Below, one piece after another: positions 39,015 to 59,669 of a DNA stretch of 64,000 nt (within the stretch, counting starts at the first letter, position 1; the number at the start of each line of letters is the position of its first letter). A model generated the notes under the pieces. It was not told the DNA's origin and ran no database searches. It saw only the letters and a list, made by a program, of their open reading frames with translations. Source of the DNA: Pseudomonadota bacterium. GTDB lineage: Bacteria; Desulfobacterota; Binatia; UBA1149. The position numbers were made by a program, and so were the translations under genes. The stretch spans positions 174 to 64,173 of the forward strand of contig JACNKC010000057.1 in assembly GCA_014382245.1 (NCBI GenBank), given 5' to 3'.

Positions 39015-39992
39015 ATGAACGTGGAATACGGAACCTTCGTACCGCAGGGCTGGCGCATGGAGATGCAGCATCTCCAGGGCGGCCAATCCCAGTGGAATGT
39101 CTTGACCGCGAGCGCGCGCGCGCTTGAAGACGCTGGCTACGACTCGTTGTGGTTGTACGACCACTTTCACACCGTGCCGCGTCCGGCCATGGAGCCGACC
39201 TTCGAGTGCTGGAGTACGATGGCCGCTCTGTCGCAGGTGACAAGCCGAGTGCGCCTGGGCCAGCTGGTGACCTGCAGCGCCTATCGCAACCCGGCTTACC
39301 TCGCCAAGCTGGCCAGCTGCGTTGACGTGATGAGCGGCGGCAGGGTCGACCTTGGAATAGGCGCCGGCTGGAAGACCGAGGAGTTCGAAGCCTACCAGTA
39401 CCCGTTTGCCGGCATACGCGAGCGCCTCGACCGCATGGCCGACACGGCGCGTATCTGCCGCGCGATGTTCACGGACGAGAAAGCCACCGTAGAGGGAGTG
39501 TACCACCGGGTGACCGACGCCATCAACGAGCCAAAGCCCGTGCAGGCCGGGGGGCCCCCGATCTGGATAGGCACGCAGGGCGAAAAAGTCGGCCTGCGCA
39601 TGGTGGCCGAAGTGGCCGACGGCTGGAACCATAACCGTGGGCCCGACGAGTACGAGCGCAAGCGCGAGATCCTTGCAGGGCATTGTCGCGACCGCGGCCG
39701 CGACCCCGACAGCGTGCGCATATCAGTGGAGAACACCTGCGTGATCTACGAGAGCGAAGCCGAGCTACGTGATTTTGCCGCTCGCTGGTGGCCGCACTAC
39801 AACGAGAAACAACTCACCAGGTTCCTGGCCAACTGCTGGACCGGGAGGGCCGAGGATATCGCGGCCGAGATAAGGTTTTTTACCGAGCGGGGAGCGTCGC
39901 TGGTGATCTGCTGGTTCCAGGACCTCTGTGACGCCGGCAATGAGGATTCGCAGGCGCAGCGATTTATGCGCGAGGTCGTGCCGCTGGTCTGA
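39015..39992 (+). CDS. LLM-class F420/flavin-dependent oxidoreductase
   Basis: MNVEYGTFVPQGWRMEM...LWLYDHF...GRVDLGIGAGWKTEEFEAYQYPF...GGPPIWIGTQGEK match the luciferase-like monooxygenase family. Confidence 0.8.
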   Translation: MNVEYGTFVPQGWRMEMQHLQGGQSQWNVLTASARALEDAGYDSLWLYDHFHTVPRPAMEPTFECWSTMAALSQVTSRVRLGQLVTCSAYRNPAYLAKLASCVDVMSGGRVDLGIGAGWKTEEFEAYQYPFAGIRERLDRMADTARICRAMFTDEKATVEGVYHRVTDAINEPKPVQAGGPPIWIGTQGEKVGLRMVAEVADGWNHNRGPDEYERKREILAGHCRDRGRDPDSVRISVENTCVIYESEAELRDFAARWWPHYNEKQLTRFLANCWTGRAEDIAAEIRFFTERGASLVICWFQDLCDAGNEDSQAQRFMREVVPLV

Positions 39993-40094
39993 GCGACAGG
40001 GCTGGCCATACGAGTTTGCCGTGCCTGCACCTGGGGTACAGCCCGCCACCCGTCACGGTCAAATGAAGGGTGGCGGGCCTGCGGTTTGCATGCT

Positions 40095-43000
40095 TCAGCT
40101 CCCGGCCGGCTCGCACACGAACTTCAGTGAATCGGAATCCCGTGTGCCTCGTCCGTTCGTGCCTGGGGTTGAGATCGCCTGCACTTTCAGCTTACCCTTG
40201 CCGGCCCGCGTACCGTCGTTCCTCAGCGGAACCTGAAATTCTACCAGGTCACTGCAGTCACCCTCGACAGTGACCGGCGAGGAGTAGGTTATTTCAGATC
40301 CTGCTCTTCCGCCCAGCGTTGCCTGTCCAGCTGGATCCAGGGACGCTATGGCGTCACGGAGCGCGGTGCCGTTGGCTGCGTCGTGGGGCTTGCGACTGTC
40401 AGGCCTGGGCTTTTTAACCCGTAGCGAATCCACGCCGCTCACCGAGCATGCTAGATCGCCGGTCTTGGGGTCTACGAGGCGAGAGTCATCAAGATTCAGG
40501 CAGGCCGCAAGGCGGAAGACACATACTCCGTTGGCCTGGCCATCTCCGTCGCACACCGGATCACCGTCGCGGCAGGTCTGTTCCGGGTTTATGTAACCTC
40601 TTCTATCGAAGAAGGGGCGGTTGAGGGGGTTGCGTATAGACCACTCCAGCACGCAGTTCTTTTTTGCTGATCCCTTGCCGGGCACGAGGTCACCCGCGGT
40701 TTCGCCCATGTACATGTCGCTGAACTTGCATGTCTCGAACGGCCACACTCCTGTCCCCGATACGGAGGCTGGATCAACGGGGTCAGCATTGTTGTCGTCG
40801 CAGCAGAGCGGCACCGGCGTATCCGGGTCGGCTACACAATCGGCCGTTCTCAGTGAGCAACCGCTTCCAGTGTAGTTGTGTTTACACTTCTTGGTCGCAG
40901 CGGGGAGCATGGGAGTGCTGTTCCGCTTGAGCACCAGGTTCTGCTCCTGCAGGCTCGAGCTGCTCGAGCAGGTACCACCGGCGGGGCAGTTGTCTGGGTT
41001 TTTCTTGCTGCACGGTAGGCCGTCCATGGTGCCGCCCGAGCAGGTGCCCTTGTCTACGAAGCCGTCGTTGATACGATCATCCCAGCACATGCTAACGGTT
41101 ATCGCCGACGCGAACTGGGTGACGCCGGGGGCGGTCGTGTCTTCGGGGGTCAGAATTGCCCGCATGCCAACACCCGCTCCCGCCTCTACCTTGAACTTGT
41201 CACTGCCCGAGCTGTGATCGAAGCCGGTAATGGAAAAACTGGTGTCGGTGGCAATGGCACCAGCTGGTACATCAATGGTAACGCAGCCGTCAGTCGTGGT
41301 GAGCGTGCCTCCGGCAACACCGATGTTCACGCCACCGGACCTAGCCACGGTGCAGTTCTGGTCAGAAAAAGCAGGGCAGTCGTCGCATACATCGCCACCG
41401 TCGCAGCAGCCCTCCTTGCCGACGGGGACCACGCCCGAGCAGCCACCCGAAACCCAGAAAGCGGGGTCGGTACAGTCGTAGTCAGCCTGGTCCGGGTTGT
41501 ACTCGGCGGCGCAGTTGTCATCGGGGTCGCACACGCCGTCGGCGTCTGGATCGGTGCTGTCGCAGGTGTCGGTGGCTTCTTCGCAGTTGTAACAGGTACC
41601 CAGGGCCAGGCAGGGGTCGCCGCCGCTGGTGCAGGCCGCGGCCTGGCAGGTCTCAATGCCCGTGCAGTAAAGCCCGTCGTCCGAGCAGGCCGTTCCGTTG
41701 GCCAGGGCCGGATGCGCGCAGGCGCCCGCGCCATCGCACTGGTCGTCGGTGCATTCGTTGCCGTCGTTCGTGCAGGCTGTTCCCGCACTCACGTCGCAGC
41801 TGTTGGCCGCCTCGTCGCAACTGTCGGCGCACTCGGCGCCACCGACGCAGGGGTCGCCGCCGCTGGTGCAGGCCGCGGCCTGGCAGGTCTCAGCGCCCGT
41901 GCAGTAAAGCCCGTCGTCGGTGCAGGCAGTGTCGTTGGCCACGGCCGGATGCGCGCAGGCGCCCGTGCCGTCGCACACGTCGTCGGTGCATTCGTTGCCG
42001 TCGCTCGTGCAGGCTGTATTCGCCGCCACCGCGCAGCTGTTAGCCGCTTCGTTGCAACTGTCGTCGCATTCGGCGCCACCCACGCAGGGGTCGCCGCCGC
42101 TGGTGCAGGCTCCAGCCTGGCAGGATTCTGAACCAGTACAGTAAAGTCCGTCGTCGGTGCAGACAGTGTCGTTGGCCACCGGCGTGAACACGCAGGCGCC
42201 CAGCGCGCAGGAGTCCGAGGTGCACTCGTTGCCGTCATTGCACACCAGGGTCAGGCAGGGGTCGGGGGCAGGTTCTTTTATTACGTGAGTGGTGCCGTTG
42301 GGGTCGCCTATTCCCGAGCCGCCAACCGATAGATCCAGGGTGCCGTCGCCATCGAGGTCGCCGAGGTCTACGCCCCAGCCGAGATTGCCGTCGTTGACCT
42401 TGCCGTACCAGACCGCCGGTGCGGTGTTTATCGAGGTGTTCAGTCCACTGTAAGTGCCGCCCGAGAGTACAAATACGCCGCCGTTCTGGGCCATTCCGCC
42501 TCCGGAATACAAGGGCGCCCCGATGTAGAGTTCGAGCTTGCCGTCGGCGTCGTAGTCGGCGGCAGCCAGGTCGGTGCCCAGGCGGTCAAACACCGCGTCG
42601 CCGTCTCCTATGCAGCTGTCGGCGCTGGTGTAGGGCGAGGGGTAGTCCACCGGGTAGACCGCGGGCGAAGCCCCTATGGGTCCGTACTTGATGTACACGC
42701 GCGATTCCACCGCCACCCCGTCGCTGGGAGACCCGACCACGAGGTCGTCGATGCCATCGGTGTTGACGTCGGCCACGTCAAGGCCCTGGCCGAACCAGGC
42801 GTCGTCTTTCTTCATGTCGATGCAGGCCGAAGCGACGCAGGAACAGGAGCCGCCACAGGCCGGCGCGCCGTCCATGATGCTCAAGGGCTGGGAGACTGGA
42901 TTGTTGATGGGGCCGTTGGCGCAGAAATTGAACTCGACCACGGCCGCGGTTCCAAGCAGGTATACGCGTCCCGCCCGGGCGAACCCGTGGCGGTGTATGG

Positions 43001-43733
43001 GTGCGCCGACCACGAGATCGACCAGTCCGTCGTTGTCTATGTCGCCGGCTGCCGGGTAGCCGAACATTTCGAGTTGCGCGCCACCGCTCATTATCGAGTA
43101 GCCGTTGCCCCCGGTGTACAGGCGCCAGTTGTCGGCAAATATTTCCTGTCCCCACACGAGTCCCGCCGACTTGTGCAGCACGTGGATGGCACCGCCATCA
43201 ACCTTTACTCCACCCGCTAGGCCGGCCACCGGATCGGCCAGTGGGTCACCGATGATGAGGTCGTTCTGCCCGTCGCAGTCGATGTCGGCAATCTCAAGGC
43301 CCAGGCCGAAACCGCCGCTGCCCGTCAAGGCCGTGGGTGCGTTGATGCGGAAGGCGTTGGGGGCGACGGCGCCGGCTTTGCAAAGCACGCTCACGTCTTC
43401 GGGCGCTGCTCCCATGGCGATGGCCCCGCGTACAAGGCACACGTGGTCGCTGCCGGGCACGCCTATGGCGATGTCGTCAATGCCGTCAGCGTCAAGATCG
43501 CCCACGGCCACGCCGCGGCCCGAATCGGTGGCCAGCGCAGCACCGCCGAGGTAATCGTGGCCGCTCACGGCCTGGGCCGAGACCTCGGCCGGTACCGCCC
43601 AGGCCTGCTGGGCTGTAAGCGTGATGGTGAGCACTGCCAGCGCGAGCAAGGAAAAACCTCGCACTGCGACGCAAGCGCTGCCTGTGCACCCGGGAGCGCT
43701 GCGGTGAATCGACGAATGGTATTCAGTGGTCAT
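40095..43733 (-). CDS. Large secreted FG-GAP (integrin-alpha-like beta-propeller) repeat protein with tandem Cys-rich repeats and a TSP3-like Ca-binding motif (1212 aa)
   Basis: Signal peptide SLLALAVLTITLTAQQAWA. At least six FG-GAP/Ca-binding repeats (e.g. GDLDADGIDDIAIGVPG, GDIDNDGLVDLVVGAP, GDLDGDGTLDLSVGG). About 2.75 near-identical 79-aa Cys-rich modules (ANDTxCTDDGLYCTGxExCQAxACTSGGDPCVGGAEC...GNECTDDxCDGxGACAHPA). A DPDADGVCDPDDNC thrombospondin-type-3-like motif. No recognisable C-terminal sorting tag. Confidence 0.8.
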   Translation of the reverse strand: MTTEYHSSIHRSAPGCTGSACVAVRGFSLLALAVLTITLTAQQAWAVPAEVSAQAVSGHDYLGGAALATDSGRGVAVGDLDADGIDDIAIGVPGSDHVCLVRGAIAMGAAPEDVSVLCKAGAVAPNAFRINAPTALTGSGGFGLGLEIADIDCDGQNDLIIGDPLADPVAGLAGGVKVDGGAIHVLHKSAGLVWGQEIFADNWRLYTGGNGYSIMSGGAQLEMFGYPAAGDIDNDGLVDLVVGAPIHRHGFARAGRVYLLGTAAVVEFNFCANGPINNPVSQPLSIMDGAPACGGSCSCVASACIDMKKDDAWFGQGLDVADVNTDGIDDLVVGSPSDGVAVESRVYIKYGPIGASPAVYPVDYPSPYTSADSCIGDGDAVFDRLGTDLAAADYDADGKLELYIGAPLYSGGGMAQNGGVFVLSGGTYSGLNTSINTAPAVWYGKVNDGNLGWGVDLGDLDGDGTLDLSVGGSGIGDPNGTTHVIKEPAPDPCLTLVCNDGNECTSDSCALGACVFTPVANDTVCTDDGLYCTGSESCQAGACTSGGDPCVGGAECDDSCNEAANSCAVAANTACTSDGNECTDDVCDGTGACAHPAVANDTACTDDGLYCTGAETCQAAACTSGGDPCVGGAECADSCDEAANSCDVSAGTACTNDGNECTDDQCDGAGACAHPALANGTACSDDGLYCTGIETCQAAACTSGGDPCLALGTCYNCEEATDTCDSTDPDADGVCDPDDNCAAEYNPDQADYDCTDPAFWVSGGCSGVVPVGKEGCCDGGDVCDDCPAFSDQNCTVARSGGVNIGVAGGTLTTTDGCVTIDVPAGAIATDTSFSITGFDHSSGSDKFKVEAGAGVGMRAILTPEDTTAPGVTQFASAITVSMCWDDRINDGFVDKGTCSGGTMDGLPCSKKNPDNCPAGGTCSSSSSLQEQNLVLKRNSTPMLPAATKKCKHNYTGSGCSLRTADCVADPDTPVPLCCDDNNADPVDPASVSGTGVWPFETCKFSDMYMGETAGDLVPGKGSAKKNCVLEWSIRNPLNRPFFDRRGYINPEQTCRDGDPVCDGDGQANGVCVFRLAACLNLDDSRLVDPKTGDLACSVSGVDSLRVKKPRPDSRKPHDAANGTALRDAIASLDPAGQATLGGRAGSEITYSSPVTVEGDCSDLVEFQVPLRNDGTRAGKGKLKVQAISTPGTNGRGTRDSDSLKFVCEPAGS
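41611..42265. repeat. Tandem direct repeat, period about 237 bp, about 2.75 copies, high identity; encodes the Cys-rich modules of the FG-GAP protein
   Basis: The 30-mer caggggtcgccgccgctggtgcaggccgcg recurs at 41611, 41849 and (with 2 mismatches) 42084. Flanking sequence is near-identical across copies, and the six-frame ORF track shows mirrored overlapping ORFs over this span. Confidence 0.8.
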
Positions 43734-44252
43734 GTTATCTGTCCCCCCGGCAGGATCCCCTGTAAGGCTCCGGCCGCCGTAATCCTTATTCCTTCAACGA
43801 TGCAATCCCTGTGCCGCATCCGACACAAGCGCTGCGAGGCGCTATTACCCGCTGCGCGTCCTTGCTCCGGCGCTGCAGCCGCTAAGCTGGGTTTTCACCT
43901 GCCGTAGCATCCGGCTGCTTGCTGCCAAGCCTGGTTTGCAGTGGGCGTGGGAGGGCCGGCTGGAGATTCTCCCGCTTCGGCCCTCGTAGACCCCGCTCAT
44001 TGTCCAACTGAGCGGCAGCAACCGGCACTTGTCAACGGGCGCCGGTTCGTGGAGGGCGAATGAGATGGGCAGCGGGTGGCAAAGGGGAGTCTTTTTCGAT
44101 GACCACAAGGCGTTGGCTGTGTATCAGCCGCATAGTCTCGACCCCTGCACAAGGGGGTGAAAGTGGCGCGGTTGACGGGCAACGGCTGAGCGTATAACCA
44201 CTTGGCGGACGGTTGCGGCTCAACGGCTGCGGCGGGCAGAGAGCCTGAGAAG

Positions 44253-45104
44253 ATGAACTACAGGGGAAAGGTGGCGGTGGTTACGGGCGCTTCGTCGGGA
44301 ATAGGCTACCAGGCGGCCCTGGCACTGGCCGAGCGTGGTTGCACCGTGGTGGGTGTCGCGCGCCGGCAGGCCGAACTCGAGGAACTCACCAGCCGCTGCC
44401 GGCGGCACGCGTCGGATTCCACCTTCATGGTCGGCGATCTCGGTGAGCGCGCCTTCGCCGAGCACGTGGTAAACGACAGCGCTCGGCGCTTCGGTCGCCT
44501 CGACATCCTGGTCAACAACGCGGGCATTCCCATTCACAAGCATATCTACGACGTGACTCCCGACGACGTGGAGAGAGTGATGCGTGTTAACTTCATGTCG
44601 AGCGTGTGGACCACGCTGGCGGCGATTCCCCACATGCTGCTGCTGGGCGAGGCGTGGATAGTAAACGTGTCTTCGTTTGCCGCCCAGGTCGCGCCGCCGC
44701 GCGAGACTGCCTACACGGCTTCGAAGGCGGCAATGGATGGTTTTACCGAGGGGCTATGGACCGACCTCGCGGGGTCGGGCATACACGCGGGCCTGGTCAT
44801 CCCGGGGCCCATCGACACCGAGATCTGGGACAAGGACGACAGTCCCAGTGCCTACAGCGGCAACCTGCACCCGCCGTCGATAGTGGTGGACGCCATCCTC
44901 GAGTGCATAGAGAACAAGCTGCGCGAGGTGGTCGCTCCGCGCTACAGTCCGCAGTTGCTCGCCGCCCGCTGGATGAGGTTTCTCACCCCGTCGCTCATGC
45001 TCAAGGGCATGAGCTGGATGGAGCCGGTACCCGAAGAGGTCGTGTCGCGCGCCCGCGCCGCGGCCCGGCGAAAGCGCGACGGTGAAGGGGGGGGCATGGG
45101 ATGA
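44253..45104 (+). CDS. SDR family oxidoreductase
   Basis: Start at ATG 44253 (MNYRGKVAVVTGASSGIGYQ). Contains the NNAG motif and a YTASKAA catalytic Tyr-x3-Lys. Confidence 0.8.
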   Translation: MNYRGKVAVVTGASSGIGYQAALALAERGCTVVGVARRQAELEELTSRCRRHASDSTFMVGDLGERAFAEHVVNDSARRFGRLDILVNNAGIPIHKHIYDVTPDDVERVMRVNFMSSVWTTLAAIPHMLLLGEAWIVNVSSFAAQVAPPRETAYTASKAAMDGFTEGLWTDLAGSGIHAGLVIPGPIDTEIWDKDDSPSAYSGNLHPPSIVVDAILECIENKLREVVAPRYSPQLLAARWMRFLTPSLMLKGMSWMEPVPEEVVSRARAAARRKRDGEGGGMG

Positions 45105-59459: not shown

Positions 59460-59669
59460 CGATTCGGCAAGGGCCGGGGGCCTGCCCCCCCGGTCAGGGC
59501 CCCCCCCCCGAACGGGTATAAATCATTCATGTTACCCGGTAGATGCAGTGCTATCCCTTGACGGGGACGGGAGCGCAGTGGTTTACTTGAGCCTGCTGCC
59601 CGCCGCTGAGCGTGGCCGCAAGGGGGACTTTATCATGAATCATTTCTGCGGGCCGGCCTGGCCCTTCCT

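Follow-up and report, generated by a model that had tools for sequence, protein, structure and literature searches.

How can one gene differ over its last 1.6 kb, including its whole 3′ untranslated region (UTR), between genomes that are almost identical on either side of it? The question is raised by a gene on the minus strand of a 64,000-nt stretch of contig JACNKC010000057.1 (the window, with a G+C content of ~65%), whose host is probably an uncultured marine bacterium of the Binatota. The host assignment follows from the neighbouring proteins, which belong to 90%-identity clusters with named members from metagenome-assembled genomes of Candidatus Binatota or ‘Deltaproteobacteria’. The gene encodes a 1212-aa protein with 77 Cys residues. 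The first-pass annotation had taken this open reading frame (ORF) for a real gene, and both the translation and an identical NCBI entry bear it out: MBC8292524.1 (‘MAG: FG-GAP repeat protein [Proteobacteria bacterium]’, 1212 aa) is its exact product. Our answer is that the C-terminal module has been swapped as a cassette; this swap is the main feature of the locus, and it was overlooked in the first-pass annotation. The features on which the argument turns are the following.

40095..43733, minus strand: the whole gene, encoding a 1212-aa multidomain protein predicted to be exported, with an ATG start (NCBI MBC8292524.1).
40001..41609, minus strand: the replaced cassette (‘allele A’), comprising the last ~505 codons and the whole 3′ UTR.
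40041..40078, minus strand: an 11-bp GC-rich inverted repeat, GCCCGCCACCC ... GGGTGGCGGGC, in the 3′ UTR, present in allele A only.
41487..41525, minus strand: an island of 39 nt in which alleles A and B do not differ at all, encoding PDDNCAAEYNPDQ, at the thrombospondin type-3 (TSP3) motif, in surroundings that are ~55% identical.

Comparison of the window with the syntenic contig of a second strain (L001) gives 99.4% nucleotide identity over 12 kb upstream and 99.7% over 10 kb downstream, and across the genomes that carry the alternative form of the module (allele B) the flanks are 99.4–100% identical to those of the window. Taken in 60-nt segments, the alignment with L001 shows 56–60 identical positions out of 60 across the promoter region, the propeller, and the repeats; identity is ~50% from window position ~41610 to ~40001; and it is 60 out of 60 again from 39989. 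Both breakpoints are sharp: base-level identity stops after ...GGCGACCCCTGC (the ‘GDPC’ at the end of the last Cys unit) and is back 8 nt past the stop codon of a convergent oxidoreductase gene. Alleles A and B align with each other end to end at 41–47% aa identity. Each occurs unchanged elsewhere, allele A being 100% identical in six other assemblies (L005, L006, L007, L009, L010, and L011) and allele B 100% identical in L003, L004, and L008, and the contigs of the two kinds stem from different samples and assemblers. Seven assemblies have allele A beside the same neighbour, which places the allele at this locus. The inverted repeat in its 3′ UTR is probably a terminator hairpin, to judge from its sequence; the 3′ UTR of allele B has a GC-rich hairpin that differs from it. 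Hypermutation of the diversity-generating retroelement type was ruled out as a source of the difference, because the divergence spans 1.6 kb and includes non-coding sequence.

Our comparisons also give a polarity for the exchange. Allele B follows the phylogeny, with 98% aa identity in L023 and L024, where the propeller is 93–95% identical, and ~80% identity in the more distant protein P0003, where the propeller is 70% identical. As read from these alignments, allele B is the vertically inherited form, and the window’s allele A the derived one. None of 30 other modules drawn from a library of 1.84 billion proteins is more than 45% identical to allele A, which is also compositionally foreign: its G+C content at third codon positions (GC3) is 0.709, compared with 0.799 for the N-terminal part of the same gene and 0.806 for allele B, and it lies below all 22 ORFs of the window (mean 0.802, standard deviation 0.026, minimum 0.749; z = −3.6). 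A scan of genome contigs for allele A returned TSP3-motif matches only; a scan of metagenome contigs returned nothing, and an alignment query returned allele-B relatives only. The simplest reading is that the ancestral module was replaced homologously by a foreign or long-diverged allele, and that the flanks were then homogenised or were never different.

The module also appears to be exchanged between genes of one genome. In the relative L002, the orthologue (P0003) is followed by a paralog, P0252, of 892 aa, which has its own ribosome-binding site (RBS) and signal peptide and no propeller. The modules of P0252 and P0003 are 95.7% identical in aa sequence, and the two genes are 99–100% identical at the nucleotide level over ~1.4 kb, from just past the NPDQ motif to the stop codon, after which identity collapses. 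The paired tracts lie at L002 11941–13320 and 14641–16020; the N-terminal parts of the two genes are unrelated. On this sequence pattern, the identity of the two modules indicates recent gene conversion between tandem paralogs, and a module that is homogenised between paralogs behaves as an exchangeable unit. The 39-nt island shared by alleles A and B lies at the same place as the start of the L002 tract; this coincidence suggests that recombination has repeatedly had its junction at the PDDNCAAEYNPDQ motif.

The possibility that the L002 gene is followed by an ‘orphan silent cassette’ was considered and rejected, since the ORF in question, with its RBS, start codon, and signal peptide, is the full paralog P0252. 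Past the P0003 stop codon and ahead of the P0252 ATG lies a run of 12 G (L002 13334–13345), in or next to the RBS (AAAGGAGGGGGGGGGGGGATG), which could allow slipped-strand phase variation of P0252 or could be a weakness of the assembly. Three further very large genes, none with a firm Pfam match, lie in L002 1–9083 and encode proteins of 1665 aa (no match, cut by the end of the locus), 632 aa (no match), and 1840 aa (a faint Sortilin-Vps10 match); the last carries the same Cys-rich units (blastn matches at L002 7467–8301), and the region suggests an island of related surface proteins.

Upstream of the cassette, the same gene varies in a second respect, the length of its repeat array.

41553..42257, minus strand: the Cys-rich stalk, aa 493–727, with 2.75 units of 79 aa and 12 Cys in each.
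41606–42206, minus strand: the tandem array as found by Tandem Repeats Finder (period 237, 2.5 copies, 86% matches, score 870).

The first-pass annotation had described near-identical 237-bp repeats, ~2.75 copies of a 79-aa, 16-Cys module, which it saw as a substrate for copy-number change and possibly under ongoing concerted evolution. The period and the copy number hold: the array is far beyond chance by its score, and its 79-aa units are in register. Other parts of the description need revision. Counted in the sequence, the Cys residues number 12 per unit (38 in aa 493–735); copy 1 and copy 2 are 89% identical at the nucleotide level, the third, partial copy is 78% identical, and the longest exact run at an offset of 237 is 46 nt, so that ‘near-identical’ is an overstatement; and with units 78–89% identical, ongoing concerted evolution finds no support. 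No curated model describes the units: Dicty_CTDC reaches 23.8 bits, below its Pfam gathering score of 27; TIGR02232 and DUF4215 are not above their cut-offs here, DUF4215 being present in other members of the module family defined below; and the proposed comparison with myxobacterial Cys-rich-repeat models gave no NCBIfam match.

Comparison across strains bears out the view of the repeats as a substrate for change in copy number, with 2.75 or 3.75 units among syntenic contigs whose flanks are 99.4–100% identical. The array has 3.75 units in L003 and L001 (JGI 3300011013) and 2.75 units in the window and in L004 (ERZ27251151, which carries allele B), and the array and propeller of the latter two align without a gap. 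The extra unit is a hybrid of the last (partial) unit, which follows it and matches its first half, and of unit 2, which matches its second half, as expected of a product of unequal crossing-over between units 2 and 3. Because the syntenic L023 and L024 (propellers 95% and 93% identical in aa sequence) both show four DDGLYCTG motifs at 79-aa spacing, 3.75 units are probably the ancestral state. The left flank of L005, an allele-A scaffold, matches the 3.75-unit structure at 99.7% vs. 98.2% for the 2.75-unit structure; allele A therefore also occurs on an array of the 3.75 type, and copy number and cassette type are independent. On these alignments, the locus thus carries two polymorphisms that are independent of each other, and the combination of repeat-number change and cassette swap is typical of surface proteins under diversifying pressure.

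What, then, is being exchanged? The Cys-rich C-terminus, which the first-pass annotation had described as lacking a recognisable sorting tag, indeed has 29 Cys in aa 728–1212 and matches nothing in Pfam or NCBIfam. Searches of both databases for sorting signals (PEP-CTERM, MYXO-CTERM, GlyGly-CTERM, the type IX secretion system C-terminal domain, and LPXTG) gave no match, and the protein ends in ...LKFVCEPAGS with no hydrophobic tail. That annotation missed that this region is a widespread conserved module that includes a ZU5-like domain. Three parts can be distinguished.

41349..41552, minus strand: a thrombospondin type-3-like Ca-binding loop, DPDADGVCDPDDNCAAEYNPDQ, with a CCDGGDVCDxCP knot, aa 728–795 (by profile).
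40692..41348, minus strand: a ZU5-like β-sandwich with Cys-rich insertions, aa ~796–1014 (by AlphaFold2 model and Foldseek).
40098..40691, minus strand: the terminal domain of ~198 aa, aa 1015–1212, with 8 conserved Cys.

The TSP3-like motif had been noticed from the sequence, and the profile supports it: positions 1–38 of profile A5 match COMP (2e-6) and thrombospondin-2 (2e-3) among PDB sequences. It is a single repeat with the DxDxDGxxDxxDNC and NPDQ motif, for which Pfam TSP_3 is not reported in this protein; the loop and the CCDGGDVCDxCP knot are kept across the module family.

The ZU5-like region was modelled at a predicted local distance difference test (pLDDT) score of 63.7 overall and 75–88 in the sandwich core. 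With this medium-confidence model, the top 12 Foldseek matches in the PDB are all ZU5 domains (ankyrin, UNC5b, and ZO-1), with probabilities of 0.75–1.0, E-values of 2.5e-3 to 9e-2, and target-normalised template-modelling (TM) scores of 0.18–0.53; stand-alone ZU5-ANK chains reach a target-normalised TM of ~0.52 at E 2.5e-3. Profile matches to the ZU5 domains of ankyrin and ZO-1 are weak (E ~0.02), and Pfam ZU5 has no match in the 1212-aa protein. The domain ends in TCKF-S (F1004-S1005), where PIDD and Nup98 have their HFS autocleavage motif. In alignment A5, the F of this TC-x-F-S motif is invariant, S is common, and His occurs in few members, the HFS form being present in P0141 and P0154; the window protein has K-F-S, with no catalytic His, and no autoproteolytic H-F-S or CxH motif was found in it.

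The terminal domain carries the motifs PGxGSxxxDCxxEW and CxDGDxxCDxDG and was modelled, from just 22 sequences, at pLDDT 92.8 with a predicted TM score of 0.88. No member of the family has a Pfam or NCBIfam match in this domain, and a profile search of PDB sequences was empty. Foldseek gave a best E of 7e-3 with TM ≤0.33 against the PDB and nothing in BFVD; across PDB and BFVD, no match had E ≤1e-3 or TM >0.36. No internal duplication was detected when the terminal domain was compared with the mid region by hhalign. The predicted fold is one that we do not recognise.

To define the module family, we used an end-to-end profile match together with the 8 conserved Cys and both terminal-domain motifs; the profile was built from three C-terminal regions and searched among clusters at 50% identity. 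The window protein scores 780 bits, end to end (profile positions 2–502). Matches were found in 1041 representatives at E ≤1e-3, 391 at E ≤1e-10, and 72 at E ≤1e-30. The profile match splits into separable pieces, the last of which (positions ~309–502) forms the extreme C-terminus in most matches, and the N-terminal partners are varied: FG-GAP, DUF5122, SBBP/DUF7948, Sortilin/BNR, a lactonase-type propeller, β-helix, DUF11, and DUF4215.

The N-terminal part, by comparison of the window with L001, lies outside the replaced region.

43596..43733, minus strand: the N-terminal leader, aa 1–46, with a long n-region, the hydrophobic core LLALAVLTITL, and a predicted signal-peptidase I site, AWA|VP.
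42258..43595, minus strand: the FG-GAP (integrin-alpha-like) β-propeller, aa ~47–492 (by Pfam and motifs).

The first-pass annotation had predicted a secreted protein with an integrin-alpha-like N-terminus, and our analysis agrees on both points. The hydrophobic segment of the leader ends in AQQAWA|VPAEV, a probable signal-peptidase I site read by eye; the NCBI and JGI gene calls include later starts, all of which retain the signal peptide, and the frame with the ATG start is also kept in the second strain, L001. Pfam FG-GAP (PF01839) matches in 6 stretches (E 3.4e-28; 97.4 bits against a cut-off of 22.1), and FG-GAP_3 (PF13517) matches with 46.2 bits (cut-off 26.9). Six DxDxDG Ca-binding loops are seen in the translation, a seventh blade being presumed, and a Cys-rich insertion lies within the propeller at aa ~270–306. 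In the 2.1-kb N-terminal part (window 41640–43733), 11 of the 14 single-nucleotide differences between the window and L001 are packed into 177 nt (window 43485–43661; aa 25–83, i.e. the signal peptide and first blade), including a three-base codon change, R25 to A. This cluster may be a second small recombination tract.

According to the annotation of the syntenic L001, the gene stands alone among metabolic genes in window 30000–53600: acyl-CoA dehydrogenases, enoyl-CoA hydratases, TetR regulators, an F420-dependent luciferase-like monooxygenase (LLM) oxidoreductase, a short-chain dehydrogenase (SDR), an O-methyltransferase, DUF3604, and penicillin amidase; genes for a secretion system, for immunity, or for a partner protein were not found in that interval. 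Its 3′ neighbour is a convergent TIGR03560-type F420-dependent oxidoreductase gene (window 39015–39992), which lies 102 nt away and is identical in both haplotypes, and its protein product is identical on 13 contigs. Homopolymers of 8–10 G or C occur in the window at 7–14, 45087–45094, and 59500–59509, the second of these where the SDR and methyltransferase genes meet. On the 5′ side lies one further element.

43734..44252, no strand: the intergenic region of 519 bp up to the divergent SDR gene, in which no feature was found.

The first-pass annotation had pointed out this long non-coding stretch, which is indeed present, and had supposed that it might carry complex regulation. That supposition is unsupported: Rfam returned just two chance-level matches in 39700–44500 at E ≤1, a scan for sigma-70 promoters gave zero sites, and terminator-like sites were at the shuffled expectation. 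With no Rfam match and no consensus promoter, nothing in the 519 bp points to unusual regulation. The stretch is identical or nearly so in close strains and 87–92% identical in relatives with 93–95% identity, and no counterpart was detected in the 70% relative.

Taken together, we favour an account in which an exported multidomain protein has variable repeats and a swapped C-terminal cassette, with a function that we infer from its architecture. As a whole we consider this account probable; its descriptive part is considerably more secure than that, and its functional part is tentative. The protein would be exported by the Sec pathway, folded oxidatively, and stabilised by disulfides and Ca2+; from N- to C-terminus it has the FG-GAP propeller, the stalk of 79-aa Cys units, and the TSP3/ZU5-like/8-Cys module. 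The stalk gains or loses one 237-bp unit by unequal crossing-over, as in the change from the probably ancestral 3.75 units to the 2.75 of the window, and the C-terminal module, together with its own terminator (40001–41609), was exchanged by homologous recombination with a very divergent homologue. The propeller may serve as a ligand-binding head, the Cys units as a rigid spacer of variable length, and the C-terminal module as a shared ‘base’ by which such proteins are presented, tethered, or processed at the envelope. The module might have been swapped because an exposed structure is under diversifying or frequency-dependent selection, possibly for avoidance of phages or predators that use it as a receptor or for strain-specific recognition; a role in adhesion or predation, as the first-pass annotation had it, would likewise be conjecture from architecture. 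A stronger version, which we think quite unlikely, would make the module an undescribed, widespread common base for a large class of surface proteins of Binatota and related uncultured lineages, a device of new fold for attachment or auto-processing that is type-matched by conversion and swapped between strains, giving strain ‘types’ for recognition or phage escape.

Several points weigh against this account. It depends throughout on metagenome assemblies, and the propeller is linked to allele A just in the window contig and in the gapped scaffold L005. No collection searched yielded a donor or a paralog carrying an A-type module. Export is read from the sequence alone, and the ZU5 assignment leans on the model of pLDDT 63.7 and on marginal E-values. 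Moreover, the terminal domain lies near the N-terminus in P0213, P0217, P0218, and P0236, and short forms consist of a signal peptide and the terminal domain alone; the domain is therefore more than a simple tag for C-terminal sorting.

Other explanations must be set against it. One concerns the origin of allele A only: the A-type module might have been copied by gene conversion from an unsampled paralog in the same genome, and so be neither imported nor an ancient balanced allele. The same process is seen in L002, where nucleotide identity is 99–100% and breaks off sharply at the NPDQ motif and at the stop codon, and the 5′ junction in the window falls in sequence that is conserved family-wide. 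However, the tract extends over ~95 nt of 3′ sequence that is non-coding and holds a different terminator, and it ends by the neighbour’s stop codon, a pattern that fits allelic exchange at the orthologous locus better than ectopic conversion; GC3 is below that of every tested window gene; and neither the full-length search nor the search of representatives found a second A-type protein. We regard an origin within the genome as unlikely. Assembly artefact, in which repeat collapse or chimeric joining would have created the repeat number, the junction of propeller and A module, or both, is extremely improbable. The array, together with strain mixture, does break assembly graphs, as seen from the six independent short-read contigs of the allele-A strain (L006–L011) that stop 27–100 nt into it, near window 41612–41710, and from the 100-N gap of L005 at the same feature. 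Yet the longest exact inter-unit runs (46 nt in the window and at most 96 nt in the 3.75-copy version) are shorter than the 141-mers named in several contig titles; the 2.75-unit structure was assembled independently in the window and L004, and the 3.75-unit structure in L003, L023, and L024; and allele A has the same gene beside it in seven assemblies. As the exact runs are short and each structure was assembled independently more than once, we regard the copy-number difference among assemblies as real, within what contig sequences can tell.

Two functional alternatives remain to be weighed against the favoured account. Myxococcus TraA is an exported, polymorphic surface receptor with a stalk of Cys-rich repeats, and the C-terminal module might likewise give homotypic, allele-specific cell contact, with paralogs homogenised to a single specificity. 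The likeness extends to export, the Cys-rich stalk, and one region that is sharply polymorphic between close strains, here as two discrete and very divergent alleles on near-clonal backgrounds, and the module is identical between paralogs of one genome. Unlike TraA-type receptors, however, the protein has no PA14-like variable domain and no MYXO-CTERM tag in Pfam or NCBIfam searches, and no TraB-like partner gene nearby; its polymorphic part is C-terminal and belongs to the ‘base’ of a conserved family, not to a distal head; and Binatota are not known to be social. We think such recognition very unlikely. A polymorphic-toxin-like effector, in which propeller and repeats deliver, ZU5-like autoproteolysis releases, and the terminal domain is the exchanged toxin, is highly improbable. 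ZU5 domains in large bacterial surface proteins have been noted as probable autoprocessing modules, and for polymorphic toxin systems both the replacement of C-termini by recombination and a role of ZU5 as a processing autopeptidase, in toxins and in other bacterial surface proteins, have been described (Zhang et al. 2012, PMC3482391). As in those proteins, a ZU5-like sandwich stands beside a β-propeller in a large secreted protein, ahead of the terminal domain; F-S is at the autocleavage position, with HFS itself in P0141 and P0154; and a C-terminal part is exchanged by recombination. In contrast to them, the window protein has no Pfam ZU5 match, lacks the His of HFS (KFS), and comes with no RHS, SpvB, or immunity gene, the next gene being the same convergent F420-dependent oxidoreductase in both haplotypes. 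The alleles are homologous over their full length and are not unrelated toxin folds; the swap also covers the ZU5-like and TSP3 parts; no toxin family was found in Pfam or NCBIfam; and the terminal domain is of an 8-Cys, extracellular type found in over 1000 clusters.

The protein as a whole combines elements of known systems. It resembles bacterial integrin-alpha-type FG-GAP proteins in its N-terminal propeller with DxDxDG loops, in a secreted protein, with a strong Pfam match, but the propeller is here only a head, and the C-terminal 720 aa lie outside that description. Thrombospondins and COMP share the DxDxDGxxDxxDNC...NPDQ motif (COMP profile match 2e-6); they carry a ‘wire’ of 7–13 type-3 repeats, whereas one repeat acts as a linker here. 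Mosaic or dimorphic surface-protein genes, kept or exchanged through homologous recombination, are a general phenomenon, and the locus is of this known kind: it has two diverged haplotypes with sharp breakpoints on near-identical genomes and a variable number of tandem repeats. It differs in that it comes from an uncultured environmental phylum and in that a conserved, uncharacterised module is involved; what is new is this module, with a ZU5-like domain and a terminal domain whose fold we do not recognise. Binatota are uncultured, and to our knowledge nothing is known of their cell surface.

In conclusion, the locus is a clear natural case of cassette-type allelic replacement combined with repeat-number change in an environmental population. 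Our analysis also defines a large, uncharacterised C-terminal module, spread over more than 1000 clusters (50% identity) and without a match in Pfam, NCBIfam, or the PDB, and the bacterial ZU5-like domain that precedes its terminal domain makes an autoprocessing hypothesis testable. Should the module prove to be an anchoring or processing device or a recognition determinant, the domain make-up of hundreds of large ‘hypothetical’ secreted proteins would be accounted for; otherwise, the gene would be an ordinary mosaic surface-protein gene.

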